From assembly GCA_963790475.1 (NCBI GenBank), contig CAWBOS010000006.1, positions 32,001 to 96,000 of the forward strand: DNA of 64,000 bases, given 5' to 3'. The notes under the pieces are model-generated. The model saw only the letters and a program-made list of their open reading frames with translations, did no database searches and had not been told where the DNA came from. The translations under genes were made by a program, and so were the position numbers. How positions within the stretch are numbered: the first letter of the stretch is position 1; each line of letters begins with the position of its first letter. Origin of the DNA: an uncultured delta proteobacterium (GTDB lineage Bacteria > Desulfobacterota > RBG-13-43-22). This document shows positions 37,944 to 56,760 of this stretch, piece by piece.

Positions 37944-37949
37944 CTGTTT

Positions 37950-40355
<2,406 letters not shown>

Positions 40356-40425
40356 CTAGACCGTGAATAATATTAATTTCCCTTAATACGGTCTGACTAA
40401 TGTTTTTTAGTTTTTATTTATTAAG

Positions 40426-40552
40426 TTATTCAAGAGAGTCTTGGATAACTCACAAATTCCTCGATTCCGGTTAAAGCCGGCAATCAGGATAAGTTGAAAA
40501 GACTGGATTCCGGCATTCCGCCGGAAAGACGACAAAAGACTTTTTAAGAGGC
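40426..40552. repeat. REP-like palindromic element, degenerate copy
   Basis: ATTCCGGTTAAAGCCGG...CTGGATTCCGGCATTCCGCCGGAAAGAC...GACTTTTTAAGAG resembles the 11859 and 44870 copies. Confidence 0.55.
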
Positions 40553-40562
40553 TAAAAGGGGA

Positions 40563-41702
40563 TTAAGGATTGTCCCCGGACTCATCCGTAAGCTTCATAG
40601 GCATGATCAGAGCCAGAAACCCCGGTTCTTTCTCTCCGCTTAATAAAGCGGGAGTAACCGATTCATTGAATTCCAGAATAACATTTTCGCTTTCCATAAC
40701 CTGAAGGGCGTCAATAAAAAACCGGGCATTGAATCCTACGACTAAATTACTCCCCTTATACTCCAGAGGTATACTTTCTTTGGCTTCACCAATCTCCGGA
40801 TTAACCGACAGGATTTCCAAATTACCTTTAGTCAGGGAAAATTTGACCCCTTTATATTTATCCGACGAGAGAACGCCCATCCTTTTCATGGTATCCATCA
40901 GATTATTTTTTGGAATAGTGACCACCTTTTCCTTTTTCTTCGGCAAGACCAAGGTATAATCAGGAAAATTGCTTTCTAATAATCTCATGATCATTAAGGT
41001 TTCCTCTTTTTTAAAAACGCCAAAGGACTCCTTAAATCCAATTTGTATCGGACCTGGTTTTTCCAAAATTTTTAATATTTCGGTTACGGCCTTTCGAGGT
41101 AACAGAACGCCTTTAGGAAAAACTCCCTCCCCTAACGGTTGAATTTCTTTATCCATAAGGGTTAACCGGCGACCATCGGTGGAAACCATTCGAAGAATAT
41201 TCTTTCCTTCTTTATCGATATATTCGAAGTAGATCCCCGATAAGTTATACCGTCCTTCATCCATTGATACAGATATAATGGTTTTTTGGATCATGTCCCC
41301 CAGCAAGGAACCGTCCAGAGTTATCATCTGTTTTAAATCGATATCCGGCAAGGGAGGGAAATCTATGGCTGGAAGACCGGAAATCGTAAACTGGGATCCT
41401 TGACAGGAGATAAAAAGCTTATTATTTTCCTTTAGTTTTATAAATATCTCTTCGTCCGGAAACTCCCGGATAATTTCAAAAAATTTTCGAGCTAAAATCG
41501 ATATACCACCGGCATTAATGATGGTTGCCGGACATTTTAACCGTATTCCCACTTGTAGATCAGTGGCTATAAGTTGAATGCCATCCCCATCGGTTTCGAT
41601 AAGGACATTGGAGAGAATGGGCATGGAACTTCTTTTTTCTATTATTCCCTGAACCATTTGTAGACCGTCGAAGAGGGATTGTTTTTGGATCGTCAATTCC
41701 AT
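40563..41702 (-). CDS. dnaN: DNA polymerase III beta clamp
   Basis: MPILSNVLI, ATDL, DFP, VSTDGRRL, LPRK, RLLESNFPDY, GFNARF, IMPM. Confidence 0.98.
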   Translation of the reverse strand: MELTIQKQSLFDGLQMVQGIIEKRSSMPILSNVLIETDGDGIQLIATDLQVGIRLKCPATIINAGGISILARKFFEIIREFPDEEIFIKLKENNKLFISCQGSQFTISGLPAIDFPPLPDIDLKQMITLDGSLLGDMIQKTIISVSMDEGRYNLSGIYFEYIDKEGKNILRMVSTDGRRLTLMDKEIQPLGEGVFPKGVLLPRKAVTEILKILEKPGPIQIGFKESFGVFKKEETLMIMRLLESNFPDYTLVLPKKKEKVVTIPKNNLMDTMKRMGVLSSDKYKGVKFSLTKGNLEILSVNPEIGEAKESIPLEYKGSNLVVGFNARFFIDALQVMESENVILEFNESVTPALLSGEKEPGFLALIMPMKLTDESGDNP

Positions 41703-42131
41703 AACGACATTCTCCTTTTTTCTTATATTATTTTTCTTTATAAATTATTAGTAAATGTATTAAGATGACTCAATACTGGAATAAGTAGTATAAGGTATAA
41801 AAATGATTATTAAAAATTACAAAAAATTAAATTAATAACTAATTTAATAAGCCTTGAAATAAGAAACAAAAAAAGATGCCCTTTATTAAAAATAGAAAGG
41901 CTTTTGGCCTGTTTTAGACTTACTATTCAATATCACTGTTTAATTAGGAAATATTAATATAATTTACTGATTCCTCAAAGAAACTTGTCTTTATACTATA
42001 TAAGACGGTATAGAAAAAAGCAACCTAAAAAAATTATTCAAAAGCTCCTTTGGGAATAAGTTTTCCTGCTTTTCTTAAAAGAAAAACAGGGCTCTTGAGG
42101 ACGATATCTGAAAGGGGAAAAATAATAAATT
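41703..42131. other. Candidate replication origin (AT-rich region upstream of dnaN)
   Basis: Visibly the most AT-rich long stretch; degenerate DnaA-box-like words (TTATTCAAA, TTATTCCCA, TTATTCCAG); trio-like run before the dnaN RBS; no perfect TTATCCACA seen. Confidence 0.5.
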
Positions 42132-44099
42132 ATGGAAGACAAAAAAGTCATTTTTAATCCGGATAAAATAGAAATAACCGTGCCCCAGGGAGAAAATTTA
42201 TTAAGGGCGGCTATGAAAGCCGGGGTTCATATCAATGCTTCCTGTGCCGGTGAAGGGGTCTGCGGAAAATGCCGGGTGATTATAGACCGAGGGGATGTGG
42301 AAAGTGTAAGGACGGAAAAAATTACTCCGGAAGATTTTGCCTTGGGTGTTCGACAGGCATGTAAAACAAAAATTATCAGTGACTTAGAAATCACAATCCC
42401 CATGGAATCCCAGTTGGACCGTAAAGTGTTGGGCAGAGAAAGGCCCAGATCGGGAACCTGGCAGGTGATTTCAGAAATCAAGATCGAAGACTTGATTGTC
42501 GATGGTAAATTTCAACCCCCTTTTGAAAAAAAATACCTGGAAATTTCGCCACCTACCATATCTGACAATATAAGTGATCTTTCCCGGGTTATTCGTTCCC
42601 TAAAACAAACCCATGGCATTCATAACTTAATGGTTGATTTTTATACGATTCGAAAATTAGCTACCGTCCTTAGGGAAGGCAATTGGAAGGTAACAGTAAC
42701 GATTGGAAATCCTAGAAAAAAAAGTCGAAGAACTGAACTAGTAAATATTGAACCCGGGGATACTACCCATCAAAACTATGCCGTGGCCATCGATATTGGG
42801 ACAACTACTGTCTGGGGGCAATTATTGGATTTGAATACTGGCGATATCCTGGCCCAACAGGTCGAGTATAATGCCCAGATCAGTTACGGGGAAGATGTTA
42901 TCTCCCGTATTGTCTATGCCCAGAAACCGGAAGGTCGTCAAAAAATGAAAGACCTGGTGGTTTCTACTATTAATACCATTATCAAGGAATTACTTAAAAA
43001 ACACAAGGTGTCCCCGGATGGGATAACCCATATCACCTTGGCGGGCAACACCACCATGACCCATTTGTTTCTGGGTATAGAACCCCGATACATCCGGGAA
43101 ACCCCTTATACCCCTCCTATGAATTATATCCCGCCCATTCGGGCTAAAGAGGTGGGGATTAACCTGGGGGATCATGTTCAGGCCTATTTGTTTCCCTCCA
43201 TTGCCAGCTATGTGGGGGGGGATATCATTGCCGGGGTCATGGGATCGGGGATGTCCAGGCAGGAAAAATTGACCCTGTATATTGATCTGGGCACCAATGG
43301 CGAGATTGTTATCGGAAATTCGGAATGGATGACCTGTGCCGCCTGTTCTGCCGGCCCGGCCTTTGAAGGCGGGGGGATTAAACACGGGATGAGGGCCACG
43401 GAAGGGGCCATTGAAGATTTTAATGTCAATCCCAGCACCTTTGAACCCATGCTTCTGACTATTGGAATGAAAAAACCCAAAGGGATTTGTGGTTCGGGAC
43501 TAATCAATATCGTAGCCGGGTTGCTCGAATCCTGTGTTCTGGATCAAAACGGAAAATTCAAACATGGACTGAAAACAGACCGAATAAGAGAAGGAAGCGA
43601 TGGCCTGGAATACGTTCTGGCCTGGGCCCAGGATACCCAGATCAGCCGAGATCTGGTCATTACCGAGGTGGATATTGACAATCTGATCCGGGCCAAAGGG
43701 GCCATGTACGCCGGCTATATCACATTGTTAAGTGAAGTAGGTTTGACTATGAATGACTTGGAAGAGGTTATTATCGCAGGAGGATTTGGAAATTATATCA
43801 ACATTGAAAAATCGATTACTGTCGGGCTGCTGCCTGATCTGCCTTTAAATAAATTCAAGTTCATCGGCAACGGGTCCTTGTTGGGTGCCCGCCTGATTTG
43901 TCTCTCCAATATTCTTCGAACCGAGGTAAAAAGGATATTTAATAAAATTACGAATATAGAGTTAAGTGAAAACCATAATTTTATGAATCATTACATAGCC
44001 TCCCTTTTTCTTCCTCATACCGATCAAAAACTCTTTCCCCGGGTTTTTGAAAGGATAAATTGTATGGAAAAAAAAGTGAGTGAGGCAGAGAGGAATTGA
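42132..44099 (+). CDS. ASKHA/DUF4445 reductive activator of corrinoid proteins (RACo/AcsV-like)
   Basis: N-terminal 2Fe-2S CAGEGVCGKC...QAC; AIDIGTTT, GEDVISRI, GNTTM, DLGTNGE, SAGPAFEG, ICGSG, AGGFG. Confidence 0.93.
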   Translation: MEDKKVIFNPDKIEITVPQGENLLRAAMKAGVHINASCAGEGVCGKCRVIIDRGDVESVRTEKITPEDFALGVRQACKTKIISDLEITIPMESQLDRKVLGRERPRSGTWQVISEIKIEDLIVDGKFQPPFEKKYLEISPPTISDNISDLSRVIRSLKQTHGIHNLMVDFYTIRKLATVLREGNWKVTVTIGNPRKKSRRTELVNIEPGDTTHQNYAVAIDIGTTTVWGQLLDLNTGDILAQQVEYNAQISYGEDVISRIVYAQKPEGRQKMKDLVVSTINTIIKELLKKHKVSPDGITHITLAGNTTMTHLFLGIEPRYIRETPYTPPMNYIPPIRAKEVGINLGDHVQAYLFPSIASYVGGDIIAGVMGSGMSRQEKLTLYIDLGTNGEIVIGNSEWMTCAACSAGPAFEGGGIKHGMRATEGAIEDFNVNPSTFEPMLLTIGMKKPKGICGSGLINIVAGLLESCVLDQNGKFKHGLKTDRIREGSDGLEYVLAWAQDTQISRDLVITEVDIDNLIRAKGAMYAGYITLLSEVGLTMNDLEEVIIAGGFGNYINIEKSITVGLLPDLPLNKFKFIGNGSLLGARLICLSNILRTEVKRIFNKITNIELSENHNFMNHYIASLFLPHTDQKLFPRVFERINCMEKKVSEAERN

Positions 44100-44102
44100 A
44101 AG

Positions 44103-44855
44103 ATGAGTTACACAATTGCTTTAGCGGGAAAAGGGGGGACCGGGAAAACGACCATGGCGGGTCTTTTGATTCGCTACATGGTGGGAAAGGGTCTCAAACC
44201 GGTGTTGGCCGTCGATGCTGATGCCAATGCCAACCTGAATGAGGTCCTGGGTGTCGAGGCCCGCCAAACTATCGGAGATGCCCGGGAAGAAATGAAAAAA
44301 GGCGGCTTGCCGGGTATGACCAAAGATATTTTCATGGAAATGAGGATTCAGGAATCTTTGGTGGAGTCTGAAGGGTTTGATCTGATCATTATGGGCCGGC
44401 CGGAAGGCCAAGGCTGTTATTGTGCCGCCAACAACCTCCTGACCGAATTTATAGAAAAATTATCTCAAAATTATCCCTATATGGTGGTGGATAACGAGGC
44501 CGGCATGGAACATATCAGCCGGCTGACCACCCGGGAGATTGATGTCTTATTGATCGTTTCCGACAGCTCCCGCCGGGGCCTCCAGGCTGCTGTTCGAATT
44601 GGAGAATTGACCCGGGAATTGGGGTTGAAGATAGAAAAAAGATTAGTCATCATTAACCGGGCCGAAAAAGAAGATCTTTCTGAAATCAAGGATTGGGAAA
44701 CCTTACTGAATGACCAGGGTTTAACCCTTTTAGGGATTGTCCCCAAGGATGAACTGATTTATGAATTCGACAAAGAAGGGAAGCCCACCAGTACCCTTCC
44801 GGAAAATTCCCTGGCCCGGTCGACAGCCTTTAAGTTGTTTGATTCTTTATTTTAA
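44103..44855 (+). CDS. cooC: CODH/ACS nickel-insertion ATPase CooC/AcsF
   Basis: AGKGGTGKTT, VDADAN, GCYC, DNEAGMEHISR. Confidence 0.92.
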   Translation: MSYTIALAGKGGTGKTTMAGLLIRYMVGKGLKPVLAVDADANANLNEVLGVEARQTIGDAREEMKKGGLPGMTKDIFMEMRIQESLVESEGFDLIIMGRPEGQGCYCAANNLLTEFIEKLSQNYPYMVVDNEAGMEHISRLTTREIDVLLIVSDSSRRGLQAAVRIGELTRELGLKIEKRLVIINRAEKEDLSEIKDWETLLNDQGLTLLGIVPKDELIYEFDKEGKPTSTLPENSLARSTAFKLFDSLF

Positions 44856-45094: not shown

Positions 45095-46297
45095 TTATCT
45101 TCTGCTAAAATCCGCCAGGGTCCCTTTATATTTTTCAAGCTTTTTCTCGTCCAGTTCGATGCCGATGCCCGGTCTCTCCGGAGGGATCAGGTCACCGTCC
45201 TTCCACTCGAAGGGTTCCTTGACGATGTCATCGAAGAAATCCCTGGATTTGTAAATGCTCTCCTGAACCAGAAAGTTGGGTATGTTGGCATCGATCTGCA
45301 GGGCGGCGGCGGTGATGACCGGCCCTCCCCAGACATGGGGGGCCATGAGCACGTAATAGGCTTCGGCCATGGAGGCGATCTTTTTGCAGGCCGTGATTCC
45401 TCCGCAGCTTCCCAGATCGGGCTGGGCCACAGCGCAGGCCCCGGCCTCGAAAAGTTTTTGAAAATCATGAATGGTGACCAATCTTTCGCCGGTGGCGATG
45501 GGGATGGTCGTACTGGCGGCCACCCGGGCCATTTCCTTAAAATTTTCCGGCGGGCAGGGCTCTTCCATCCACAAAGGGTCATATTTTTCAACCCTTTTGG
45601 CCAGGCGTCGGGAGACGGCCGGGGTGATCTGCCCGTGAGTGCCGATGCATATATCGGCCCTGTTGCCCACCGCCTGGCGGACCTTCTCCACAGCCCTTTC
45701 CGCGTGATCATACTCGGCCATGGTTATTTCCCAGGGGGCCAAGGGCATTCGTCTTAACCCGGCCTGGTGCAGGGGATCGAATTTGACCCCGGTAAATCCC
45801 GCCTCCACCATCCCGGCCGCCGTTTCGGCCAGCCCGTCGGGGTTGGTGAACCAATCCAGGGTGGCTTCCAGGAGATTGTCTTTTTTCAGGTCGAAGAGGT
45901 AGGTGTAGCTCCTGATCCGGTCTCTGAATTTACCCCCCAGCAGGTTGTACACCGGGGTGTTGTAGTATTTGCCGCAAATATCCCACAGGGCGATGTCAAA
46001 GGCGCTGATCAGTCCGACGGTCAGATAATCCGGATGTTGGGCGGTCAGGTTGGAATAAAGATAATGGTAAAGCGTTTCCCGGTTGATCGGGTCTTGGTCT
46101 TTCAGGTAAGTGTCGAAAATATTCTCCACCATTTTCTCGTAGCCATTTTCAAGCCCGTATAGGCTCCAGAGAACCGCGGTCTCCCCCCAGCCGGAAATTC
46201 CCTGGTCAGTTTCCAGCTTGAGAAAAAACCATAAAAATCCTCCCCAATTGGGGGGCTCGGTTTTTACAACATATGGCTTAACATTTGTCAGTTTCAT
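45095..46297 (-). CDS. Mandelate racemase/enolase-superfamily enzyme (DgoD-like dehydratase)
   Basis: ETDQGISGWGE, DIALWDICGK, PVYNLLGG, KFDP, GTHG, EEP, TGER, QPD, APH, PGIGIE. Confidence 0.92.
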   Translation of the reverse strand: MKLTNVKPYVVKTEPPNWGGFLWFFLKLETDQGISGWGETAVLWSLYGLENGYEKMVENIFDTYLKDQDPINRETLYHYLYSNLTAQHPDYLTVGLISAFDIALWDICGKYYNTPVYNLLGGKFRDRIRSYTYLFDLKKDNLLEATLDWFTNPDGLAETAAGMVEAGFTGVKFDPLHQAGLRRMPLAPWEITMAEYDHAERAVEKVRQAVGNRADICIGTHGQITPAVSRRLAKRVEKYDPLWMEEPCPPENFKEMARVAASTTIPIATGERLVTIHDFQKLFEAGACAVAQPDLGSCGGITACKKIASMAEAYYVLMAPHVWGGPVITAAALQIDANIPNFLVQESIYKSRDFFDDIVKEPFEWKDGDLIPPERPGIGIELDEKKLEKYKGTLADFSRR

Positions 46298-46327
46298 GGT
46301 CGTCCTTTCTTAAGATGATGAGAAACC

Positions 46328-47302
46328 CTAAAGACATGACCAAATCGTCCTTTTAACCAGAGCCCGGGCGATCGGGACCATATAACCATTGTGGGCCAAG
46401 GGTTTGGCTCCAGCCACGGCGGACTCTGCGGCCTCCGTGGCGATTTTTTCGTTTAGCGGTTTTCCGATCATACCCCTTTCGGCGTTGACCGGCCGGTATG
46501 GTTTTACAAAGACAGCGTTCAGACAGATTCGGGCTTCTTCGACCTTTTGATCTTTCAAGGTGATCGCCACAGCGCAGTTAACGATAGGAAAATCAATGGA
46601 CTTCCTAAGGGCGAATTTGCTGAAGGCGCTTCCGGTGCCAGGGGCCGGAGTCGGAATATCGATCTCCAGGACGATCTCGTCCTTTTCCAGGATCGTGGTC
46701 CCGGTTATACTCACCCGAAAGAAGTCTTCAGCCGGGACGGTTCTCTTGGTCGTCCCGATGCGGCTGTTGAGGGCGATCAAGGCCGGGGCGGTATCACTGG
46801 GGTGCACGGCATAGCACCCTTCTTCCACGCTGCCGCCGAAGATGGAGTGATAGCGGTTGTCTCCATCAATGGCATAACAACGTCCGCCGCCTTTTCTCAG
46901 ACAGGGGAAACGATTGTCCGGAGTTCGGTAGTACCAGCACCTTATATCCTGGCAGATATTCCCGGCCAGAGTGCCCATCTCCCGTATATGGGGAGAAGCG
47001 GTCTTTCTGGCCGCCAGAGACAGGGCAGTAAATTTCTCTTTCACCACAGGATGGGTGGCTATATCCTCCAGGCGGGTCAAGGCGCCTATCGTCAACCCCT
47101 CCGGGCCTTCCCGAATAAAATCCAGTCCGGGGATAGACTTAATATTGATGACCGCTTCGGGATAGTAGGGCAGGATCCTGTCTTTCATCTTTCCCAGCAG
47201 ATCGGTTCCTCCGGCAATGAGCTGGGCCCTTCCCTGATATCTTTGAAGGATTGAAACCGCCTCGTTCGTAGACTGGGCATTGATATGAACGAATTTTTTC
47301 AC
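46328..47302 (-). CDS. Xanthine-dehydrogenase-family FAD subunit with [4Fe-4S] insertion (PaoB/HcrB type)
   Basis: AGGTDL, IREMGTLAGN, RCWYYR...C.RKGG..C...CYAVHPSD; GTG 47302 after AGGAGG. Confidence 0.92.
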   Translation of the reverse strand: MKKFVHINAQSTNEAVSILQRYQGRAQLIAGGTDLLGKMKDRILPYYPEAVINIKSIPGLDFIREGPEGLTIGALTRLEDIATHPVVKEKFTALSLAARKTASPHIREMGTLAGNICQDIRCWYYRTPDNRFPCLRKGGGRCYAIDGDNRYHSIFGGSVEEGCYAVHPSDTAPALIALNSRIGTTKRTVPAEDFFRVSITGTTILEKDEIVLEIDIPTPAPGTGSAFSKFALRKSIDFPIVNCAVAITLKDQKVEEARICLNAVFVKPYRPVNAERGMIGKPLNEKIATEAAESAVAGAKPLAHNGYMVPIARALVKRTIWSCL

Positions 47303-47312
47303 GGATTCCCTC

Positions 47313-49766
47313 CTAAACCTTTCCCAAGGCCTTGAGGATTCGGTTTGGTGTAATCGGGAAGTCATCGATCCACACCCCAAGGGCGTTATAAACCGCCGGG
47401 CCGACCAGGGCAGGCACCACAGTGCCAATATCCTCCCCGATGCCCACTACCCCATAGGGGCCGTAACCCATGCCGGTCTCCACCAGGATCGTGTCGATTG
47501 GGCCTTCGATATCCAGGATAGTGGAGATCTTATAATCCAGAAGATTCCCGTTGAGCATAACCCCGGTCACCGGGTCGTAAATGACCTCCTCGGTCAAGCC
47601 CCGGCCCACACCCATATAGGTTCCGCCGTACTGCTGTCCGTTACAGGATAAGGGGTTGATGGCCTTGCCCACGTCATTGACATTGACCACCTTGGTAACG
47701 ATGACCTCACCGGTTTCAGGATCGACCTCCACCTCCATGAAATGGGCCTGACGACAGAACTTGGTATAGATATGCTCGGGATTATAAGTTCCGTCCTGGA
47801 CATGATATCCGTAAGCGAAGAGCGGGAGAGAAAAAGCGGTTCGTACACCCAGGTTCTCATTATCGCTCATGGGACCGGCACCGGTGGAGGGCCCGACGAA
47901 TTCGGCCAAGGTGATCCTTTTTGAAGGATCTTTCTTCAGAAAGATTACACTGTCCCGCATATCCAGATCTTCGGCTTTGGTCTCAGGAAAGAAAGAAGGA
48001 AAACTGCCCCGTTGGGTTTGGGCAACGGGACCGGCAGCAGCTTCCAGGATCTGCTGTTTGAGGATACGGGCGGCATTGCGAACGGCAAAACCGTTGATGG
48101 CCATATTGGTTGAGGAATCCGGAGTCATTCGGAAGAAACCGGGATCAATCCGGGGGTTATAGAAGACATCCGTCAGTTTCATCCCCAACTCATCGGCAGC
48201 TATGCGGCAGTAAGAATTCTCGGCGTCCACCCCGTTGTCACAGCCCATAGCCAGGATGGAGGCCGCGCCGTCATTTCTCTCAATGCGGATGGCCATCTCA
48301 CTCGAACCGCCCGAATCGTCCCATTCGTGGGCGAAGGTGAAGGCCAGCCCATGCATCCGGCCATTGGCCAGACGTTTGCTACCCGGCGGGTGCCACTTTT
48401 TCTCCCAGTCTATGGCCGCCTTACCATTCTCAATACATTCCCGCAGACTGTCTCTCACCACAAATCCGCGTTCTTTTTTTTGTTGATTCAACCATTCCGG
48501 GCCATGGCCGAAGGCCCCGTCATTTTTTAAGGCCACCTCCGTCGGGTCCAGATTCAAGGCATTGGCCATATGGTCAAAGACCAAGGTCTGGGTATGGGTG
48601 TTGGCATTCTGTTCACACCGGGTGGGGACATTAGGCCCCTTGTTGGTCAACACGGTCAGCATCTTTCCGTATAAATTAGGAATTCGGGTATTTTCCAGCA
48701 GGTGTTTAAGAAAATGAAAAACCGGCCATTGCTGATTAGCCAGCACGGCCCTTCCCTCAACCGCAGTAATGGTGCCGTCTTTTTTGGCCCCTACTTTGAG
48801 AGTATAGGTGCCTTCGTCCATCTCTCCGCCGAAAAAATCCTCTCGCCGGGTAAAGGTCCATTTGATCGGCCTCCCGGTGCGCCTGGACAGCAAGGCAGCG
48901 CAATAATGGCCGGCAAAATTCCAGTTGACCTGGCTCCAACCTCCGAAGCTGGCCCCCTGGTAAAGGCAATGAACTTGGATTTTGTTCATGGGAACGCCCC
49001 CGAACCAGGAAGCAATAACCCTTTTGGCAATATGGGGCCGCTGTTGTTTGACCCAGACTTCGGCCATATCGCCGTTCCAGCGAAAGACCCCGCAGGGGCG
49101 CTCAGGCCCAATCCAGGTATGGAGGCGTCGTTCGGAACGAAATTCAACGATCTGATCGGCTTCGGCAAAGCCTTTTTCAATATCGCCCTGTTTGATGTCC
49201 GAAAACGTCTCGCCCAGCAAAAGTTCGTTATAGTGATTCCCAAATGAGAAAACCTCCGGATTGGCCAGGGGTGCCTCCGGTTTCAGGGCCTCCTCCGGAT
49301 CCAGGACAAAGGGGCGGACTTCCCATTCCAGCTCGATGAGCCGCAGGGCCTGTTCGGCAATATCCTCCGTATCGGCTGCCACGGCCGCTCCGCATTCCTG
49401 CCCCTGAAAATAAACGATACCGGGAAGCACAATTTCGGCCTGTGGCACATGTCCGCCCAAGTCGGCGGTCTCGGGCAGTTCGGGATCATCATAGCGCAGA
49501 ATGGCCCGGACGCCGGGAAAATCCCGGGCCCTGGTCGTATCCATTTTTAATATTTTAGCATGAGGATAAGGCGAGGTCAGGAATCGCAAGTGGAGCATTC
49601 CGGGCAACTGGACATCCATGGTATAGTCGGCCCGCCCACCAGCCTTGTGAAGGCCATCCACCCGACGCGGGCCTCGCTGGCCGATATGGACATACTCTTT
49701 CCGGGGGTATTTGTCGGCCCCCAGGTTGTCGAACATCTCCTTCATTCGGGAGATCTCTTCAGACAT
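47313..49766 (-). CDS. Xanthine-dehydrogenase-family molybdopterin subunit, divergent
   Basis: RVDG..K, SPYPHAKI, GASFGG, TRRED, EVEVDPETG, DVGKAINP, GIGE. Confidence 0.93.
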   Translation of the reverse strand: MSEEISRMKEMFDNLGADKYPRKEYVHIGQRGPRRVDGLHKAGGRADYTMDVQLPGMLHLRFLTSPYPHAKILKMDTTRARDFPGVRAILRYDDPELPETADLGGHVPQAEIVLPGIVYFQGQECGAAVAADTEDIAEQALRLIELEWEVRPFVLDPEEALKPEAPLANPEVFSFGNHYNELLLGETFSDIKQGDIEKGFAEADQIVEFRSERRLHTWIGPERPCGVFRWNGDMAEVWVKQQRPHIAKRVIASWFGGVPMNKIQVHCLYQGASFGGWSQVNWNFAGHYCAALLSRRTGRPIKWTFTRREDFFGGEMDEGTYTLKVGAKKDGTITAVEGRAVLANQQWPVFHFLKHLLENTRIPNLYGKMLTVLTNKGPNVPTRCEQNANTHTQTLVFDHMANALNLDPTEVALKNDGAFGHGPEWLNQQKKERGFVVRDSLRECIENGKAAIDWEKKWHPPGSKRLANGRMHGLAFTFAHEWDDSGGSSEMAIRIERNDGAASILAMGCDNGVDAENSYCRIAADELGMKLTDVFYNPRIDPGFFRMTPDSSTNMAINGFAVRNAARILKQQILEAAAGPVAQTQRGSFPSFFPETKAEDLDMRDSVIFLKKDPSKRITLAEFVGPSTGAGPMSDNENLGVRTAFSLPLFAYGYHVQDGTYNPEHIYTKFCRQAHFMEVEVDPETGEVIVTKVVNVNDVGKAINPLSCNGQQYGGTYMGVGRGLTEEVIYDPVTGVMLNGNLLDYKISTILDIEGPIDTILVETGMGYGPYGVVGIGEDIGTVVPALVGPAVYNALGVWIDDFPITPNRILKALGKV

Positions 49767-50361
49767 CTTCTTTTCCTTCCCGCTCTTTAATAAAATCCTG
49801 AACAGCAATCGGATGCTGCGGGTAGGTGCCGCAGCGACAAAGATTGCCGGCCAATGCCTCCCGGATTTCCCGGTCAGTGGGATTTGGGTTCTTATCCAGC
49901 AGGGCCTTGGCCGTGACCACGAATCCGGGAGTACAATAACCGCATTGCATGGCATGGTGTTCGGCGTACTTTTCTATCAGCTTGGGATGGGCGGCAGCCA
50001 CACCTTCCACCGTTTCGATTACGGCACCATTGCATTCGATGGCCAGGGTCATGCAGGAGAGAATGGCCCGGCTGTTCATGATGACCGTACAGGAACCACA
50101 GGCCCCTCGATCGCAGAACATCTTGGCCCCGGTCAAGCCCAACCGGTCATGAATGACCTGGTACAGGGTCCACTCCGGTTCAACTATGATCTCGTAGGGT
50201 TGACTGTTGACAGTCAGCCGGATCAGCCCTTCCGGCTCGGGGACAGGTTCTGTCTTGTGCTCGGCCAGGACATGGATTTTCAAGGCTTCAAAGGTTTCCT
50301 GGAGCCGGGAACAATAAGGGCATTGGAAGCGGGCTCCCAGTTCCGAATTTTTCATATCCAT
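49759..50361 (-). CDS. Xanthine-dehydrogenase-family 2x[2Fe-2S] subunit with N-terminal C2H2-type motif
   Basis: CDRGACGSC...SC, QCGYCTPG, GNLCRC; N-terminal FQCPYC-x12-H-x4-H. Confidence 0.93.
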   Translation of the reverse strand: MDMKNSELGARFQCPYCSRLQETFEALKIHVLAEHKTEPVPEPEGLIRLTVNSQPYEIIVEPEWTLYQVIHDRLGLTGAKMFCDRGACGSCTVIMNSRAILSCMTLAIECNGAVIETVEGVAAAHPKLIEKYAEHHAMQCGYCTPGFVVTAKALLDKNPNPTDREIREALAGNLCRCGTYPQHPIAVQDFIKEREGKEDV

Positions 50362-50378
50362 AGTTCTCCCCATTCGGA

Positions 50379-51604
50379 TTAAATACTTTTCAGAGTCCTC
50401 AAAAATCGTGATTGTGTCAAACGTTGCTCATATTCCTCTTTAAAATACTTCAACGAATCCAGGACCGGTACGGGGACGGATTGACCCAGTCCGCACAAAG
50501 AGGCCTGCATCATAGCCGGAGAGAGGGCTTCCAGGGCCGAGAGATCTTCCGCCCGGCCTTCCCCATGGACCAACCGGTTGAAGATCTCCATCATCACCTC
50601 AGTGCCTTCGCGGCAGGGGGTACATTTCCCGCAGGATTCCTCGGCAAAAAAAAGAATATTTCGGAAAACCGTATCGATCATGTCCCGGCTCCGGTTAAGG
50701 ACGATCACCGCCCCTGAACCCAGTACCTGCTCAAAAGCCAAAGGGGTATTCAGCAGCTCGGGGGTAAGATCCTTCCTGAAGCTCCGCCGATCTGGACCGC
50801 TTTGATCTCTCGCGCGCCGGCCAGGTCCTCGACCAGTTCCTTTAAGGGGCTGCCCATGAGGAGCTCATAAACTCCCGGCCTTTCCACATCGCCACTGACG
50901 GAAAAAACCTTGGTACCTCTGCTTTTCTCCGTCCCCATGGCCCTGAACCAGCCGGCACCGTTCAGCATGATCCTTGGGATGTTCACCAGGGTCTCGACAT
51001 TGTTGATAATCGTTGGATATCCAAAGAGACCTTTCATTGGCGGGAAGGGAGGTTTATAACGGGGCTCTCCCCGTTTACCTTCGATGGAATCCATGAGGGC
51101 CGATTCCTCTCCACAGATATAGGCTCCGGCCCCTTCGACGATCCGAATATCCATATGATTCAGGAACCCGGCCTCTTTAACCTGTAGAAGGATTTGTTCC
51201 AGGCCATTCAACAAAAAATGGTATTCAGCCCGCAGATAAAGGTAGGCCCTTTTTGCTCCTATGGCATACCCGGCAATGGCCAGGCCTTCAATAAGAGAAA
51301 AAGGGTCCCCGGAAAGGATGGTTCGGTCTTTAAAAGCGCCGACTTCGCCCTCATCGGCATTACAGATCAGGTATTTTTCTTTCCCTTTTGTTTTTCGAGC
51401 CAACTCCCATTTCAAGCCACAACTGAATCCCGCCCCACCCCGGCCCAGAAGTTCTGAAGATTTGATCTCATCGATGACCGCTTCCGGGCTTAACTCCTCT
51501 TGACATCTTTTCCAGGCCTTAAACCCGTCTGCGGCAAGATAGGTTTTGAGATCTTGGGGATCAATCTTACCCACATTCTTAAGGACGATTCGCGTTTCCG
51601 GCAC
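50379..51604 (-). CDS. NuoF/HoxF-like FMN/NAD(H) subunit, split by a -1 frameshift at 50760-50764
   Basis: GRGGAGF, CNADEGE, GAGAYICGEE, INNVET; adding one C restores ILPPELLNTPLAFE and joins SCGKCTPCREG...LCGLG (408 aa). Confidence 0.88.
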
Positions 51605-51623
51605 GGTATTCTCCCTAAATATT

Positions 51624-52043
51624 TTAGGTATATTTCTTTAGGACTTTTGATAGCTTCTCTGGAGTTAAATGCCCATGAACATCGTCGTTGATCAACATGG
51701 CCGGGGCCAGGTCGCAGGCCCCGATGCAATTGGTCAATTCAAAGCTGAACCGGCCGTCTTTGGAGACTTCACCGGGTCCGATACCCAAGACCTCCTGAAT
51801 GCCATTGATAATCATCGGCGAATCCTGCATGTGGCAGGGGAGGCTTTTGCATATACGAATAACATACCGGCCCCGCGGCTTCAGGGATAAAAAGGAATAG
51901 AAACTGGATACCCCGAATATTTCGTTATTCGGGAGGTTCAAAGAATCGGATAATTCTTCCAGGGCGGTGGGAGACAAAAAAGACTCTTTAGTTTGTGATT
52001 GTTTCAATAATTCGAGCAGGTCTTGACGATTGGGTTCAGACAT
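51624..52043 (-). CDS. NuoE/HydC-like [2Fe-2S] subunit
   Basis: GVSSFYS, CKSLPC, CIGAC, APAMLIN. Confidence 0.92.
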   Translation of the reverse strand: MSEPNRQDLLELLKQSQTKESFLSPTALEELSDSLNLPNNEIFGVSSFYSFLSLKPRGRYVIRICKSLPCHMQDSPMIINGIQEVLGIGPGEVSKDGRFSFELTNCIGACDLAPAMLINDDVHGHLTPEKLSKVLKKYT

Positions 52044-52064
52044 ATGAAGCAGGCTCCCTCTATA

Positions 52065-52703
52065 TTAATTCGTGGGTTTGCTTAAGGCCCCGGTGGGGCA
52101 GTAGTCGATACAGATTCCACAATCTCTGCATACTTCTTTTTTTAATGGACCGTCCAGGTCGGTGATGATCTTGGACTGAAAGCCCCGATAAGCGACGCTT
52201 AAGACATTCTTTTGGGCGATCTCGTTGCAGGCCCCGACACACCGACGGCAGAGAATGCATTTGGAAAGGTCCCGTCGTACATAGGGATTATCGTCTTCAG
52301 GAGGATAATAACGGGGGGCCTCCACTTGAAAGCGGGGAGGCCCGATTTCAAGTTCAGCAGCCAGTTTATGGAGTGTACAGGCTTTGGCATTGATGTCTGC
52401 AACACAAGCCCCGGTATGAGCGGTCAGGAGGAGTTCAATAATCGTCCTTCTGGTTTCCAGGACCTTGGGCGAACGGGTATGAACAACCATGCCATTGGAA
52501 ATAGGCGTATGGCAGGCCGCTATCAGAGTACGGGACCCCGCCACTTCGATCAGGCAGACACGGCAAACACCCGTGGGTTGAAGGTCCGGCGAATGACACA
52601 GGGTCGGGATTTTAATATTAACCTGCTCGGCCGCTTGAAGGATGGTCATCCCCACCCGGCCTTTTACTGCGCTTCCGTCGATAGTAAGATGAATATCATT
52701 CAT
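52065..52703 (-). CDS. Stand-alone NuoG/HydA/FdhA N-terminal Fe-S subunit without catalytic domain
   Basis: IPTLCH, GVCRVC, AAC; HxxxCxxDxxxxxC; CILCRRCVGAC; CRDCGICIDYCPTGAL then stop. Confidence 0.92.
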   Translation of the reverse strand: MNDIHLTIDGSAVKGRVGMTILQAAEQVNIKIPTLCHSPDLQPTGVCRVCLIEVAGSRTLIAACHTPISNGMVVHTRSPKVLETRRTIIELLLTAHTGACVADINAKACTLHKLAAELEIGPPRFQVEAPRYYPPEDDNPYVRRDLSKCILCRRCVGACNEIAQKNVLSVAYRGFQSKIITDLDGPLKKEVCRDCGICIDYCPTGALSKPTN

Positions 52704-52886: not shown

Positions 52887-52916
52887 AGTATAAAATAGTC
52901 AAACAATAAGAGTCAA
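52887..52916 (-). promoter_or_regulatory. Sigma-70 promoter for the Fe-S/Mo-enzyme operon
   Basis: Minus strand TTGACT-18 bp-TATACT. Confidence 0.5.
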
Positions 52917-53128: not shown

Positions 53129-53902
53129 ATGGATAAATACCCAACTCCCCCCATGGCCGATTACCAGGATTTAAGGAAGCTCTGCCTGGAAATTGCCATT
53201 GCTGTGGGTCCCCCGATTTTCTATACCGAAAAAGAAGAATCCGTCGCACAATCCCGGATCGCTTTTGAAAAAAATGAGACGGTCCAAGAGTGTTTAGGGA
53301 TTGTGGCTCAGGAAGGATTTTTCGCCGGTCATGCCGAGGTGCATATCCGCAATGTGGCCATTGATGCCGGGGCTATCGTTCTCATTGAAGCCGATGGATC
53401 GTCAGCTATAGGGAAAATCGGCCAAAGGCTTTCTTTCCTGGCCCACATAGCCGGCGTTCTTCATGATATCAAGCGGTCACACCCCGAGCATGCCCGTCTC
53501 GGCGCCCTTGAAGCCGAAAGGATTCTGAAGCGGTTTGATCTGGAAGAGGTCGAACAGCAAATGATCGTCAAGGCCATTGCCAATCATGAGGCCTTTCAAC
53601 CGTCTGAACCTCTCGAATCGTCGAATGCCCAACTTCTTTCCGATGCCCTTTATGATGCCGATAAATTCCAGTGGGGGCCGGAAAATTTCACCGAAACCCT
53701 CTGGGCCATGCTGGCCTTACGACAGAACGAAAATGTTCCTCTCCTTTTCCAGAGGTTTCCCCAAAGCATGGAAGGCATCGAACGAATCCGCAGCACCTTC
53801 CGTTCGCGCACCGGCCAGTTCTATGGGCCCGACTTTATCGACCGGGGTCTGGAAATCGGCCATCGACTTTATGACCAGTATAAAGCTATCCAAGGAGATT
53901 GA
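53129..53902 (+). CDS. HD-domain phosphohydrolase
   Basis: H...GVLHDIKR...HARLGA...IANHE...YDADKF. Confidence 0.85.
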   Translation: MDKYPTPPMADYQDLRKLCLEIAIAVGPPIFYTEKEESVAQSRIAFEKNETVQECLGIVAQEGFFAGHAEVHIRNVAIDAGAIVLIEADGSSAIGKIGQRLSFLAHIAGVLHDIKRSHPEHARLGALEAERILKRFDLEEVEQQMIVKAIANHEAFQPSEPLESSNAQLLSDALYDADKFQWGPENFTETLWAMLALRQNENVPLLFQRFPQSMEGIERIRSTFRSRTGQFYGPDFIDRGLEIGHRLYDQYKAIQGD

Positions 53903-53977
53903 AATTCTGGAATTCAGGAGCCGGGATTTGTTTATTAAGAGATAATTTCCCAAATCAGTTATCAAGAACCTAACCAC

Positions 53978-55108
53978 TCAGGACAACAAAATCTGAGCCA
54001 ACTGTTGTTTGTGATAGGCCGGTTCACCCAGAAAATTATAAAGGTAACGGGAAGTCCGTGTGTGTAGGGCCAAAGGGTGCTCCATGGAATAACTGATGCC
54101 GCTTATGGCCCGATGTGCCATATTGCAGGCCTGAAAATAAGCCTCACTGGCCACGGCCTTGGCCAAATGAACACTCTTCGGGACCAAGCCCTGGACATCC
54201 AGTTTCCACAAGGCTTCATAGGTGGTCCAGCGGGCGGCGTCAACCTGATTGACGATTTCAATAATCAAATCCTGGACACGCTGAAAACGGCCTATGGTCT
54301 GTCCGAACTGAATCCTGACCCGGCTGTAATCCACGGCGATATCGAAAACAGCCTGGCAACCGCCGACTTTATAGGCACAAAGAACAGGAATGGAACTCTG
54401 GATGCCTTTGATTAAAGGGATCCAGCCGGTATCCTTTTTCCCTAATAAAGCCGAAGGAGGCAACTTGACATTGTCAAATTTCACTTCAAAGTTTCTGCCG
54501 ATTAAATATCCGGGTAATTTTCGTATCGAAACCCCCCCCGCTTTTTTATCCACTAAAAAAAGCGAAATGATATCGCTGTCATCTCCGGTGCGAAGCGGAA
54601 CAATAAAGTGTGTGGCCGACAAGGCATCTTGAACAAACAGCTTGACCCCGCTCAGAACAAAATCTCCGTTTTTTTCTTCAGGTCTGATTTTTATGGATCC
54701 GGAATTCCACCCATACTCCGCTTCGGTCATGGCCAGGGCCAATACTATTGATCCATCGGCAACCTGAGGTAAAATTTCTTTTTTTTGCTCATCCGTTCCG
54801 GCTTCCTGGACGATCAGACTCCCCAAAATTCCTGAGGAAAAATAAGGGCCGGGAAGAGGCCCGGTTCCCAGGGCCTCAAACAGGACCCCGGCGGTAGTCA
54901 GGGGATAGCCTGTCCCCCCAAACTCTTCCGGTATAACGATTCCCAGCCAACCCATATCGGCAACTTTTTTCCAAATAACCTCATTGAACCCGGTATCGGA
55001 ATCATGGAGAGCCATCAGCGTTTCCTTGGATATATCCCGTTTCATAAAATTGATGGCTGCAGTTTTAAGTATCTCTTCACTTTCGGTAAGCCTAATATCC
55101 AAATTCAT
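53978..55108 (-). CDS. Acyl-CoA dehydrogenase, beta-type subunit of heteromeric ACADs
   Basis: GWLGIVIPEEFGG, ALAMTE, RIQFGQTIGRFQ, GISYSMEH; ends LGEPAYH rather than EGT. Confidence 0.88.
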   Translation of the reverse strand: MNLDIRLTESEEILKTAAINFMKRDISKETLMALHDSDTGFNEVIWKKVADMGWLGIVIPEEFGGTGYPLTTAGVLFEALGTGPLPGPYFSSGILGSLIVQEAGTDEQKKEILPQVADGSIVLALAMTEAEYGWNSGSIKIRPEEKNGDFVLSGVKLFVQDALSATHFIVPLRTGDDSDIISLFLVDKKAGGVSIRKLPGYLIGRNFEVKFDNVKLPPSALLGKKDTGWIPLIKGIQSSIPVLCAYKVGGCQAVFDIAVDYSRVRIQFGQTIGRFQRVQDLIIEIVNQVDAARWTTYEALWKLDVQGLVPKSVHLAKAVASEAYFQACNMAHRAISGISYSMEHPLALHTRTSRYLYNFLGEPAYHKQQLAQILLS

Positions 55109-55237
55109 GGGTAATCTCCTTAGAAAAAATTGTTATGGTTAATCCCCTTCTCCTATTGATGAGGGCATCATAAATCATGAAAATTTGATTTGCCGAACTC
55201 TTGAAAGAAAAAGGGCATTTTCATGTCCATATTTTGG

Positions 55238-56494
55238 CTATCTTCCAATCCGCAGCGCCCTGGAGATAACGATTTTCAAGGCCTCCGGGGTGCCACCAGG
55301 GGCAATACATAGGCCGCTTCGTTCACAAACTTCAAAAAGGCCTTCCTCCAGAATGAGCTGATCGTCGTTGGTCAGGGCTTGGGGACCAAGAATCCTGGAT
55401 AGATAGGCGGTCATATTCAAACCCAACATTTTGGTAAACAGGGCGGTTTGGGGTCCGGCATAGGCGGCGCGTTTTCCTGCTCTGGGCAAGGCGGCGTTTC
55501 GCATATGAAAAAGCCGCTCTATCTCTCCTCCGATAAAGGTTTCAACCATGTCTCCTTGGAGCATGGGGTTTTGCAGCAGACGGTTTTTTATAACCGGATT
55601 GTTTTTACACTGGTCAAGCAATTTATCTACCATATGATTACGTGGAATAAAGGCGGCTCCGGTGCCGGCACGATCGGTATCTCTATCCCCATGTTCAACG
55701 GTTAAGGTGGCTGTGGTAACCTTCCAGCCGTCATTGTCCCCGCCGATCAAAAAGGAGTCAGGAATTTTAACGTCATCAAAAAAAACGGAATGTTTAACCC
55801 CCGGCGCGCTGTCCGCAGTTTGATAACAGACCTGACCGATAGTGCCCTCGGGAAAAAGGTCCAGTGGGAAAATTTGAACTCCCGCCAGATTAGCCGGGGC
55901 CAGAAACATAGCCAGATTCTGATGGCGGGGAGCCTCCATACTACTTCGGGTCAGGAGCAAAAATTGATCGGGTGGGGCGTAAAGGCCCCCGACAAATATT
56001 TTATTGCCGTTAACAACGAAATATTCTTTTTCCTTGACCGATCGCAGGGCGTTGGTCTGTTGGTTGGCCTCGTCCGTCCCGGCCTCCGGTTCGGTAAAAA
56101 GCTGCCAGGTGACGGCTTCTCCTTTTAGAATGGGGGGCAGTAAACGTTTCTTTTGCTCTTCTGTGGCACAGGCCATAAGGGTAGGGGCAGCGAGTTTCCC
56201 TGAGTCGTAAAGGGGTGGCAAGCTCAACCCTATTTCGGCCATTTCTTTATTCAGAACTGCCGATTTATCTCCCCCAAGGCCTCCTCCTCCGTATTCACTG
56301 GGAAATATAGGATAGAGCCACCCTTTTTGGCCAAGTTTGCGGCATAGATTGCGGCGCATTTCCCACTGTTCGCGGCTCATCTTAAAAATGCTCCGCGGTC
56401 TGACGAGGTCCTTAGGGACGTTCTCCTCCAGCCAGGCGCGAACTTCTTTGGCGAATGCTTCCTGTTCCGCATTGTATTTGTTGGAAAAGTCCAT
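55238..56494 (-). CDS. Acyl-CoA dehydrogenase, alpha-type subunit
   Basis: PSEYGGGG, WQLFTEPEAGTD, VNGNKIF, VFFDDV, GWKV, GGTPE. Confidence 0.9.
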   Translation of the reverse strand: MDFSNKYNAEQEAFAKEVRAWLEENVPKDLVRPRSIFKMSREQWEMRRNLCRKLGQKGWLYPIFPSEYGGGGLGGDKSAVLNKEMAEIGLSLPPLYDSGKLAAPTLMACATEEQKKRLLPPILKGEAVTWQLFTEPEAGTDEANQQTNALRSVKEKEYFVVNGNKIFVGGLYAPPDQFLLLTRSSMEAPRHQNLAMFLAPANLAGVQIFPLDLFPEGTIGQVCYQTADSAPGVKHSVFFDDVKIPDSFLIGGDNDGWKVTTATLTVEHGDRDTDRAGTGAAFIPRNHMVDKLLDQCKNNPVIKNRLLQNPMLQGDMVETFIGGEIERLFHMRNAALPRAGKRAAYAGPQTALFTKMLGLNMTAYLSRILGPQALTNDDQLILEEGLFEVCERSGLCIAPGGTPEALKIVISRALRIGR

Positions 56495-56760
56495 AATGTA
56501 ATCCTTTCGTTTTTTTTGGGGTTCTGGGCTATCGGATCCCGGTGCCAAATGGAGTCCGATCATCACATAAAATAAGTTCTCTTTATTTCACAAATTTAGA
56601 TCATTTAGAATCGTTACAAAACTCTGTTAATGAAGTCAATATTTATTTATCCGCAGGAAGTCTATTTATCTTTTGGTTTGACAAGTCGATACTAACAAGA
56701 TATTTCAGAAATTGTCAAAAATATCAAGGAGAGTCAAAAAAGATTCTGGAGGGAATTAGG

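Follow-up and report, generated by a model that had tools for sequence, protein, structure and literature searches.

The window analysed here is a stretch of 64,000 nt of contig CAWBOS010000006.1 (all coordinates below are positions in this window), and its minus strand carries, from 52703 to 45095, seven genes that run in the same direction with successive gaps of 21, 19, 5, -8 (an overlap), 10, and 30 nt (Table 1). The first three encode parts typical of NAD(H) modules (an iron-sulfur "wire" protein, a NuoE-like, and a NuoF-like subunit); the next three encode a small subunit (S), a molybdenum subunit (L), and an FAD subunit (M) of the xanthine oxidase (XO) family; and the last encodes a dehydratase of the enolase superfamily. 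The original prediction, made from the letters of the DNA, had described seven co-oriented genes with gaps of 30 bp or less, and was correct in all points checked (coordinates, and Pfam and NCBIfam domains). We place the start of M at the GTG at 47302, downstream of a GGAGGG box; a longer open reading frame (ORF) that starts with TTG extends from 47428 and overlaps L.

Table 1. Features of the operon region (positions in the 64,000-nt window; aa, amino acids).
Feature	Position	Strand	Evidence
Fe-S wire, HoxU / NuoG-N-terminal type, 212 aa	52065..52703	-	Fer2_4, NADH-G_4Fe-4S_3, Fer4_Nqo3 (Pfam, NCBIfam)
NuoE/HoxE-like thioredoxin-like [2Fe-2S] subunit, 139 aa	51624..52043	-	PF01257, E 1.4e-43
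NuoF-like FMN/NAD(H) subunit, one [4Fe-4S] site (N3/B1 type)	50379..51604	-	Complex1_51K, SLBB, NADH_4Fe-4S
nuoF reading frames, two	51604-50750 and 50741-50379	-	nuoF_fam model, 331 and 103.4 bits
C5 homopolymer (G on the plus strand), one base short compared with relatives and public contigs	50760..50764	-	sequence, contigs
Small subunit S, two [2Fe-2S] sites, 204 aa	49759..50373	-	Fer2_2, Fer2 domains
Mo subunit L (binds the molybdenum cofactor, MoCo), 817 aa	47313..49766	-	Ald_Xan_dh_C, MoCoBD_1, MoCoBD_2
FAD subunit M, 324 aa, Cys-rich [4Fe-4S] insertion	46328..47302	-	FAD_binding_5, CO_deh_flav_C
Enolase-superfamily dehydratase, galactonate-dehydratase-like, 400 aa	45095..46297	-	MR_MLE_N, MR_MLE_C
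Promoter-like site TTGACT-18-TATACT, ~185 nt 5' of the wire gene	52887..52916	-	weak

The wire protein matches only the first ~200-210 positions of the NuoG model (606) and of the FeFe-hydrogenase A6 model (571), and matches the HoxU model nearly end to end (4-209 of 238). Since it is confined to the N-terminal part of the NuoG and A6 models, the wire ends where a catalytic domain would begin, as had been proposed for this NuoG-like protein. Invariant columns in 38 aligned wires hold a [2Fe-2S] site (C36, C47, C50, and C64), a His-type cluster site with an Asp for the third ligand (H96, C100, D103, and C109), and two ferredoxin-type [4Fe-4S] sites (C149/152/155/159 and C192/195/198/202). The Asp form of the His-type motif (HxxxCxxDxxxxxC) was found in 38/38 aligned wires linked to this Mo enzyme; the canonical form (HxxxCxxCxxxxxC) was found in all 12 wires seen beside MetV and MetF (see below). 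NuoE is a separate gene in the window, and 25 of the 43 wires examined are wire::NuoE fusion proteins of 364-379 aa. The domain set and the cofactor motifs of the three HoxEFU/NuoEFG subunits are all present in the profile matches and in the Cys/His motifs, including the FMN and NADH motifs of NuoF, which can be read directly from its sequence; the scores remain below the curated cut-offs for the wire (HoxU equivalog, 183.4 vs 333), for NuoE (131.3 vs 141 bits), and for the two pieces of NuoF (331 + 103.4 vs 558.65).

NuoF reads NADEGEVGAFKDR, which bears out the EGE..AFKD-type motif of the original prediction, and the domain search likewise agrees with the predicted lack of C-terminal 2x[4Fe-4S]: no further ferredoxin-type or extra [2Fe-2S] domain was found in it with Pfam, and its intact orthologues are ~398-412 aa long. 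The BfuB subunit of bifurcating enzymes carries clusters B1-B5 and a C-terminal ferredoxin-type domain, whereas the NuoF studied here has the NADH_4Fe-4S site only. According to the main text of a survey of these enzymes (Schut et al. 2022, PMC9304861), BfuB keeps its five clusters in every Bfu enzyme, and the non-bifurcating homologues, which lack clusters B2-B5, oxidise NADH without ferredoxin. Because NuoF is without the B2-B5 domains that all Bfu enzymes conserve, the NAD(H) module is of the simple, non-bifurcating kind, and the absence of extra cluster domains supports the type that had been assigned to it.

S, L, and M have the domains of the two-[2Fe-2S], Mo, and FAD subunits of the XO family, all above the Pfam cut-offs. 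L belongs to a tight family (mean column identity of 74% over 54 sequences), in which the catalytic Glu and the Gln near Mo=O are invariant (E778, in GIGE, and Q242); E778 aligns with the Glu of HcrA, Qor, CoxL, and PaoC. The active-site loop of L reads V-P-T-R383-C384-E385-Q-N, and RCEQ is found in 81/81 sequences. In HMMER alignments, R383-C384 fall on R387-C388 in the VAYRCSFR loop of Oligotropha CoxL, and on the Cys of the 8UEM loop; we take C388 to be the Cu ligand of the Mo-Cu CO dehydrogenase and VAYRCSFR to be its loop motif. The same loop reads RGHG in HcrA, and RGHG, RAPG, and RAPN in the paralogues of the window's own genome. The best relatives of L are HcrA of 4-hydroxybenzoyl-CoA reductase (294.6 bits, full length), quinoline oxidoreductase, and mycobacterial CoxL; its best solved relative is HcrA as well (1rm6_A, E 2.5e-55, and E 2.1e-70 with a profile), and a search of the PDB with a 161-aa piece around the active-site loop gave no match. 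M has a Cys-rich [4Fe-4S] insertion (C122, C134, C142, and C163, plus C117) and an AGGTD FAD motif, invariant in 39 sequences. PDB alignments (1rm6_B, 5g5g_B, and 5y6q_B) place this insertion also in HcrB, PaoB, and the medium subunit of the Methylobacillus aldehyde oxidase; the last of these is the best solved match of M (5y6q_B, E 5.3e-41, end to end, ahead of HcrB and PaoB), so the cluster loop is not specific to Hcr. The best NCBIfam match of S is the gamma subunit of glyceraldehyde dehydrogenase. The window's genome also encodes an XO-family large subunit with an RGHG loop (G000:C12:812097-814394, L082) that scores 910.7 bits on the HcrA equivalog (cut-off 994.55), which makes it, judging by its profile score and its loop, a much better candidate than L for a true 4-hydroxybenzoyl-CoA reductase; this genome, rated 100% complete, nevertheless has no BamA/Oah (TIGR03200) above cut-off (best 119.7 vs 464.45 bits).

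We scanned species-representative genomes for relatives of L and obtained 225 confirmed loci (loci from the genome scans are labelled L001 and so on), of which the best 80, with 60-88% identity to L, were kept. All 80 are titled metagenome-assembled genomes (MAGs), assigned to Desulfobacterota, Acidobacteriota, Dehalococcoidia, Anaerolineales, Binatia, Actinomycetes, and one "Bathyarchaeia", and there is no cultured carrier among these 80; the carriers come from sediments, wetlands, and soils, and are by label of typically anaerobic lineages. The 80 loci were searched with eight protein pieces of the window and then classified: 38 contain wire, NuoE, and NuoF genes, 18 contain a long, GltD-type M (described below), 10 show L alone with at least 5 kb on either side, and 14 lie too near a contig end to be classified. 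There are three gene orders (wire-NuoE-NuoF-S-L-M, wire-NuoE-NuoF-S-M-L, and wire-NuoE-NuoF-L-S-M). Since the set recurs in 38 of the 80 L loci, its genes do not adjoin by chance. A scan in the other direction, with NuoF-N, yielded 80 loci, 45 with at least 60% identity and 35 below. Among the 45, NuoF stands beside S/L/M in 22 (seven of which are contigs of the first set) and beside MetV and/or MetF in 14 (12 with both, 2 with MetV only), and the remaining 9 end less than 2.5 kb after nuoF; no other partner was seen among these 45, and neither S/L/M nor MetVF is a partner in any of the 35 loci below 60%. The wire-NuoE-NuoF set forms a small, portable NAD(H) unit for which exactly two partners were observed. 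A neighbourhood search had been suggested as a check of the original prediction, and it finds the same gene set, with both halves co-occurring in other genomes from either direction of search. No wire, NuoE, or NuoF matches were found beside other XO-family paralogues of the same genome (L082-L088), which is a weak control with its flanks of ~1.5 kb.

Some of the loci depart from the simple arrangement. A second L subfamily, 47-50% identical to the L of the window and also with RCEQ, stands in tandem between S and a window-type L in L023, L024 (=L116), L027, and L072, and precedes a window-type L with another gene or a gap before the latter in L035 and L120; in L103 and L118, the module has no L-like match besides it. 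It may be that two catalytic subunits share one electron module. Four acidobacterial MAGs carry L on a contig other than that of wire-NuoE-NuoF-S-M (L042/L125, L048/L142, L044/L103, and L041/L122), and in several of these split MAGs it adjoins a DVU_1553-type ligase, a radical SAM gene, and a tungsten AOR-like gene. A NuoF::S fusion in L007 was ruled out by translation (there is a stop after NuoF, and S is in another frame).

Comparison of the S sequences revealed a feature that follows the wire module. S has an N-terminal extension of ~45 aa with a C2H2-like finger (C18 P19 C21 ... H34 ... H39), which gives weak zinc-finger matches in Pfam. Its pattern, CPxC-x12-H-x4-H, is present in 52/52 wire-linked rows (46 distinct contigs), and C18, P19, C21, H34, and H39 are invariant in 44 aligned wire-linked S sequences. 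Of the S rows, 24 come from loci that lack a wire module: 19 of them have no finger, 2 are N-terminal fragments, and 3 have a finger; these three (L025, L029, and L080) are all from the edges of contigs, and the tail of nuoF is still visible in L080. M reaches ~780-800 aa in the 19 loci without a finger, with a Fer4_20 + Pyr_redox_2 module inserted. This GltD/NfnB-type NAD(P)H-binding insert lies between the third and the fourth Cys of the [4Fe-4S] loop of M, and the flanking loop Cys are kept. The L sequences of the long-M loci form one clade (approximate likelihood ratio test, aLRT, 96) nested among the wire-linked L in a quick tree rooted with three same-genome paralogues. Two pyridine-nucleotide modules are thus found on orthologous Mo enzymes, one of them inserted covalently, which argues that the M loop is the electron entry point; the insertion can be seen as a natural experiment that marks this point, and gives comparative support to the electron route through the [4Fe-4S] of the FAD subunit that had been suggested by analogy with HcrB. 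Gene anatomy, cofactor motifs, and their co-variation across genomes are direct observations.

In the other partnership, MetV (DUF5981) and MetF follow a wire-NuoE-NuoF module whose NuoF is 66-74% identical to that of the window, mostly in Dehalococcoidia MAGs (L090, L092, L093, L095, L097, L100, L102, L105, L111, L114, L115, L119, L127, and L166; for example, L095:7861-13231). The gene set suggests an NADH-linked methylenetetrahydrofolate reductase on the same module. The stretch upstream (5') of the MetVF-linked module (L095:2051-7844 and L097:3120-7833) has a NuoF fused to a GltD-like domain in L095 (1018 aa) and a Bfu-like NuoF of 657 aa in L097; the upstream stretch of L095/L097 also has a NuoG::formate-dehydrogenase-like protein of the Mo-bis(pyranopterin guanine dinucleotide) (bis-PGD) type (~918 aa), so that a second, different NAD(H)-linked enzyme adjoins.

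The nuoF gene of the window has a -1 frameshift, which had been given as a caveat and which we confirmed in the window sequence: the two frames join at a run of five C on the minus strand (50764-50760), and a stop follows. One added C would restore ...ILPPELLNTPLAFEQ..., in agreement with the intact relatives, which read an uninterrupted ...GGAxGxIxPxxxxxTPLxFE.... We aligned contigs of four public runs to positions 50300-51300 of the window. A 520-nt contig of run X1 aligns over 483 nt, with a sixth C (an extra G behind 50759 on the plus strand) as the sole difference, and a 3625-nt contig of run X2 aligns over 893 nt with 41 differences (95% alike) and has the same extra G behind 50759; X1 is not fully independent, because it may be the source sample of the assembly. 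Since both contigs hold six C, a homopolymer or assembly error, or a strain variant, is much more likely than a dead gene, and the caveat that the frameshift disables nuoF is largely removed. Among the 73 NuoF-N relatives with at least 60% identity, 59 are intact, 10 are cut by the ends of their loci, and 4 are short; three of the short ones are at locus ends as well, the exception being a 296-aa relative with an internal stop in a MAG (L139:906-1796, 70% identical), the sole relative besides the window that is maybe disrupted away from a contig end. It is thus highly improbable that the locus is decaying, with the frameshift real and fixed and the module dead in this organism: the window does have just five C and then a stop, but the contigs of X1 and X2 hold six, most NuoF relatives are intact, and both halves of the locus are otherwise intact with every motif present.

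Signals of transcription in the region do not stand out from the background. It contains 8 promoter-like sites where 7.4 are expected from shuffled sequences, so that the one 5' of the wire gene could well be a chance match; the 17 terminator-like sites (11.5 from shuffles) include nothing above shuffles. Coverage in RNA run X18 consists of a ~40-nt conserved stretch (50601-50642) and a 126-nt piece at 95% likeness, and the three RNA runs, X18 among them, contain small shares of the query words only.

Taken together, these data make it probable that the first six genes encode one cytoplasmic, NAD(H)-coupled redox complex. Electrons would start at NAD(H), FMN, and the [4Fe-4S] of NuoF, with the [2Fe-2S] of NuoE beside them, would then pass along the four clusters of the HoxU-like wire to the [4Fe-4S] loop of M and on to FAD, and would finally reach the Mo cofactor of L through the two [2Fe-2S] clusters of S. 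We infer from the sequences that the subunits join physically, in what order the clusters lie, and which way the electrons flow. The finger of S may be a docking piece for the wire module. In XO-family enzymes, the small subunit turns its N-terminal [2Fe-2S] domain towards the FAD subunit, and a docking role for an N-terminal finger fits this layout. The original prediction of an enzyme that links NAD(H) to Mo chemistry therefore stands, with strong comparative support, as far as a non-bifurcating module tied to an Hcr/Pao-like Mo enzyme is concerned, and is not supported where it brings in the dehydratase.

The gene for this enolase-type dehydratase is present only in the window and in L003 and L005 (considering the window and the 80 L loci), so it is a lineage-specific neighbour and not a core part of the system. 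It scores 271.5 bits on PRK14017 (galactonate dehydratase), below the cut-off of 311, and in L005, the closest enolase-bearing relative, it is accompanied by GH1, GalK, and GalT. In the small clade of the window, it may feed a small-aldehyde pathway from a galactonate-type sugar acid. We clustered the 977 ORFs of the 80 L loci into families. The most frequent neighbours are Liv-type ABC transporter parts (13-14 loci), a short-chain dehydrogenase (SDR) family (13 loci), and a glycerol-dehydrogenase subfamily (13 loci, on the same strand and directly upstream; its one representative scores 469.9 bits against a cut-off of 336). Less frequent are a MoaD-like protein after M, a Zn-ADH, and a DVU_1553-type ligase (7 loci each); a GlcD-like family (6); MobA-like proteins and XdhC (5 and 4, respectively); PocR-sensor regulators (4); and a lactaldehyde-DH-like family, an IlvD/arabinonate-dehydratase-like family, an aldo-keto reductase, an AMP-ligase, and a CoA-transferase III (3 each). 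Since the commonest conserved neighbours are polyol and aldehyde genes, we lean to small aldehydes derived from polyols or sugars as substrates; the best solved match of M, from an aldehyde oxidase, and the best NCBIfam match of S, from glyceraldehyde dehydrogenase, also speak for an aldehyde. We tentatively propose that the complex oxidises a small oxygenated aldehyde of this origin (of the glyceraldehyde, glycolaldehyde, or lactaldehyde type) to the acid while reducing NAD+, a possibility to which we give rather less than even weight; the substrate is the weakest step of the proposal, and the neighbours give a hint of small hydroxy-aldehydes.

The surroundings of the operon in the window hold genes of other kinds. 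On the 5' side (53129-57885) there are a divergent 257-aa protein with a borderline HD domain (E 2e-4), acyl-CoA-dehydrogenase-like genes at 53978-55108 and 55238-56566 (the second without a match to the C-terminal domain), and an OYE-type flavin oxidoreductase at 56542-57885. On the other side (42132-44855), a RACo-type corrinoid activator (655 aa) and a CooC/CbiA-type P-loop ATPase (250 aa), which are Wood-Ljungdahl accessory genes, are convergent to the enolase gene; the 250-aa gene also follows the enolase gene in L005. Positions 35326-42131 contain gyrA (35326-37773), gyrB (37950-40331), and dnaN (40563-41702), followed by a 430-nt gap, in what looks like a replication-origin region (G+C of 0.378 in 40-42 kb), with no dnaA beside it among the ORFs scanned.

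Several points weigh against an aldehyde-oxidising complex. S, L, and M all score far below the equivalog cut-offs of every named enzyme. The neighbour families were each named from one representative, the window itself has no glycerol-dehydrogenase-like neighbour, and CoA-linked genes are found near some loci (AMP-ligases in 3 and 7 loci, CoA-transferase III in 3, and an acyl-CoA dehydrogenase in L004) as well as in the window, with its two acyl-CoA-dehydrogenase-like genes upstream. The best profile and PDB match of L, HcrA, belongs to a reductase of an aryl-CoA; GltD-type modules usually deliver electrons of NAD(P)H to reductive enzymes, which favours the reductive direction; and ordinary aldehyde oxidation has no use for the invariant Cys384. 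The case for a complex is built on comparative evidence. The same architecture might therefore be run in reverse, with electrons going from NADH through the wire and the [4Fe-4S] of M to Mo, and might dehydroxylate an aromatic acyl-CoA or an N-heterocycle, like Hcr or XdhD, which corresponds to the dehydroxylation that the original prediction had allowed for. The HcrB-type cluster loop of M and the GltD-like NAD(P)H module that takes the place of the wire module in a sister clade speak for this, as do the HcrA match and the CoA ligases, CoA transferases, and acyl-CoA dehydrogenases just mentioned, and there is a precedent in XdhD-YgfM, with its NADH-driven reduction of urate to yanthine (text of PMC12507026). 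We nevertheless consider a reductive enzyme unlikely, given that L, M, and S all fall far short of the Hcr equivalog cut-offs (294.6 vs 994.55 for alpha, 152 vs 404.55 for beta, and 144.3 vs 257.8 for gamma), that the loop is RCEQ where HcrA has RGHG, that the genome has a far better HcrA-like paralogue, and that polyol and aldehyde genes are the commonest conserved neighbours; moreover, with no BamA/Oah above cut-off, benzoyl-CoA would have no standard onward route. The analogy to Hcr drawn in the original prediction is therefore less close than it had seemed.

Less of the evidence is accommodated if the locus encodes two separate, co-regulated enzymes, in which wire-NuoE-NuoF would be a free-standing NADH:acceptor (ferredoxin or flavodoxin) oxidoreductase linked to S/L/M by a soluble carrier. 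The module is portable, as its place beside MetVF shows, and L is apart from it in the four acidobacterial MAGs; but without contact it would be hard to account for how strictly the S finger and the wire Asp go with the partnership, S and M remain with the wire module in the split loci, the other NAD(P)H module is built covalently into M, and non-bifurcating homologues do not use ferredoxin (main text of PMC9304861), all of which makes two enzymes very unlikely. Two flavin sites and nine predicted Fe-S sites could also make up a new bifurcating or confurcating enzyme, in which the FAD of M or the FMN of NuoF splits electrons from a low-potential substrate between NAD+ and ferredoxin. Aldehyde/acid couples are low enough in potential to drive the reduction of ferredoxin. 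Related modules do bifurcate in the Bfu enzymes, but NuoF lacks the B2-B5 domains that, according to the main text of PMC9304861, all of these conserve, and the loci conserve neither a ferredoxin gene nor an additional ferredoxin-like domain, so that we find bifurcation scarcely credible. Finally, the RCEQ loop might mark a Mo centre unlike that of any characterised XO-family enzyme, with Cys384 ligating a second metal (as in the Mo-Cu CO dehydrogenase) or bonding to Mo or its sulfido ligand; with such a centre, the complex would be an enzyme by which anaerobes oxidise a very small substrate (CO, H2, or of the formaldehyde type) and reduce NAD+, or a new reductase, with a complex-I module and a zinc-finger adaptor, which seems to us distinctly unlikely.

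If the NAD(H)-coupled complex is as we propose, it would be a new solution to the wiring of the XO family, in which a dedicated NAD(H) module of the complex-I type connects to the [4Fe-4S] of the FAD subunit. The electron acceptors known in this family are NAD+ at the enzyme's own FAD, O2, ferredoxin, cytochromes, and quinones. It would also add a new class of partners for NuoEF-type modules, besides hydrogenases, formate dehydrogenases, tungsten enzymes, and MetVF. We regard the system as a real, widespread, and apparently uncharacterised variant of a known enzyme family, whose coupling to NAD(H) has strong comparative support. It is spread over several phyla of anaerobes, and, to judge by the 225 loci with relatives of L in species-representative genomes, its NAD(H)-linked reaction may take place widely where carbon is turned over without oxygen. 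Three sequence signatures allow the system to be recognised: the finger of S, the Asp of the wire, and the RCEQ loop of L.

Among known systems, the NAD(H) half is most similar to the HoxEFU diaphorase, the NuoEFG N-module, and formate dehydrogenase of the FdsABG type, which have the same three building blocks and cofactor motifs. It differs from them in the gene order (wire-NuoE-NuoF), in the Asp of the His-cluster motif of the wire, in missing all curated cut-offs, and in its partner, which is an XO-family enzyme here and a hydrogenase, a bis-PGD enzyme, or complex I there. The Bfu (HydABC-type) family, including the tungsten-containing Wor-Bfu and BamGHI, follows a like principle, in which a NuoEFG-like trio sits on a foreign catalytic module by way of the clusters of its A subunit (main text of PMC9304861). 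The NuoF of our system is without B2-B5 and hence is not a Bfu core, and a label of Bfu-type bifurcation was rejected, NuoF being too simple for it. The BfuB survey in that paper required a ferredoxin-type domain (figure legend), so the NuoF described here would have been excluded, and the words "xanthine", "Xdh", and "molybd" do not occur in its main text (the supplementary tables being outside this scope). Similarly, a NuoEF-type module joined to an XO-family enzyme is not described in the full-text literature searched, with subscription-only papers and supplements outside, nor in the text of PMC9304861, PMC4959651, PMC5736913, PMC4046663, and PMC9686372.

For the catalytic half, HcrABC of Thauera aromatica (1RM6/1SB3) shares the Mo, 2x[2Fe-2S], and FAD core and the [4Fe-4S] loop in the FAD subunit, an insertion that is also present in PaoB and 5y6q_B and so does not define Hcr. 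It has ~30% identity to the present enzyme, and differs in the RGHG loop of HcrA (RCEQ here); the S of the present enzyme, in addition, carries a finger. Hcr uses ferredoxin as its electron donor and is not known to have NuoE/F or wire genes. With all three cut-offs missed, a better paralogue, and no BamA/Oah, we rejected the label of 4-hydroxybenzoyl-CoA reductase. The Methylobacillus aldehyde oxidase (5Y6Q) conserves the four loop Cys of M, which also aligns with PaoB of E. coli PaoABC (5G5G/5G5H), and L matches both 5y6q_C and PaoC, with a score of only 164.5 on the PaoC model (cut-off 1180) and with its own RCEQ loop; neither enzyme is known to have an NAD(H) module, and PaoABC is periplasmic. 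Scores on the Sulfolobus-type glyceraldehyde dehydrogenase equivalogs are low as well (171 vs 790 for alpha, 142.9 vs 350 for beta, and 157.4 vs 290 for gamma). The aerobic Mo-Cu CO dehydrogenase CoxLMS (1N5W, 8UEM) ranks second or third among the solved relatives of L, and R-C is all that its loop has in common with that of L (VAYRCSFR vs VPTRCEQN); L does not qualify as a form I CoxL (163.9 vs 991.15 on the CoxL model), no CoxD/E/F-type genes are among the named neighbour families of the 80 L loci, and our system has anaerobic lineages and an NAD(H) module instead, so an aerobic CO dehydrogenase was rejected on active-site loop and gene context. XdhD-YgfM of E. coli is an XO-family enzyme shown to use NADH in the dehydroxylating direction, in a reductive urate pathway; the proposed site of NADH there is the FAD subunit itself, wire and NuoE/F are absent, and YgfK, which is GltD-like, is a separate enzyme, in contrast to the insert within the FAD subunit of the long-M loci (text of PMC12507026). 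All the parts of the system are of known kinds; what is new, with none of it found in the full-text literature searched, is their combination, together with the S finger, the Asp of the wire, the RCEQ loop, and the GltD-type insertion.

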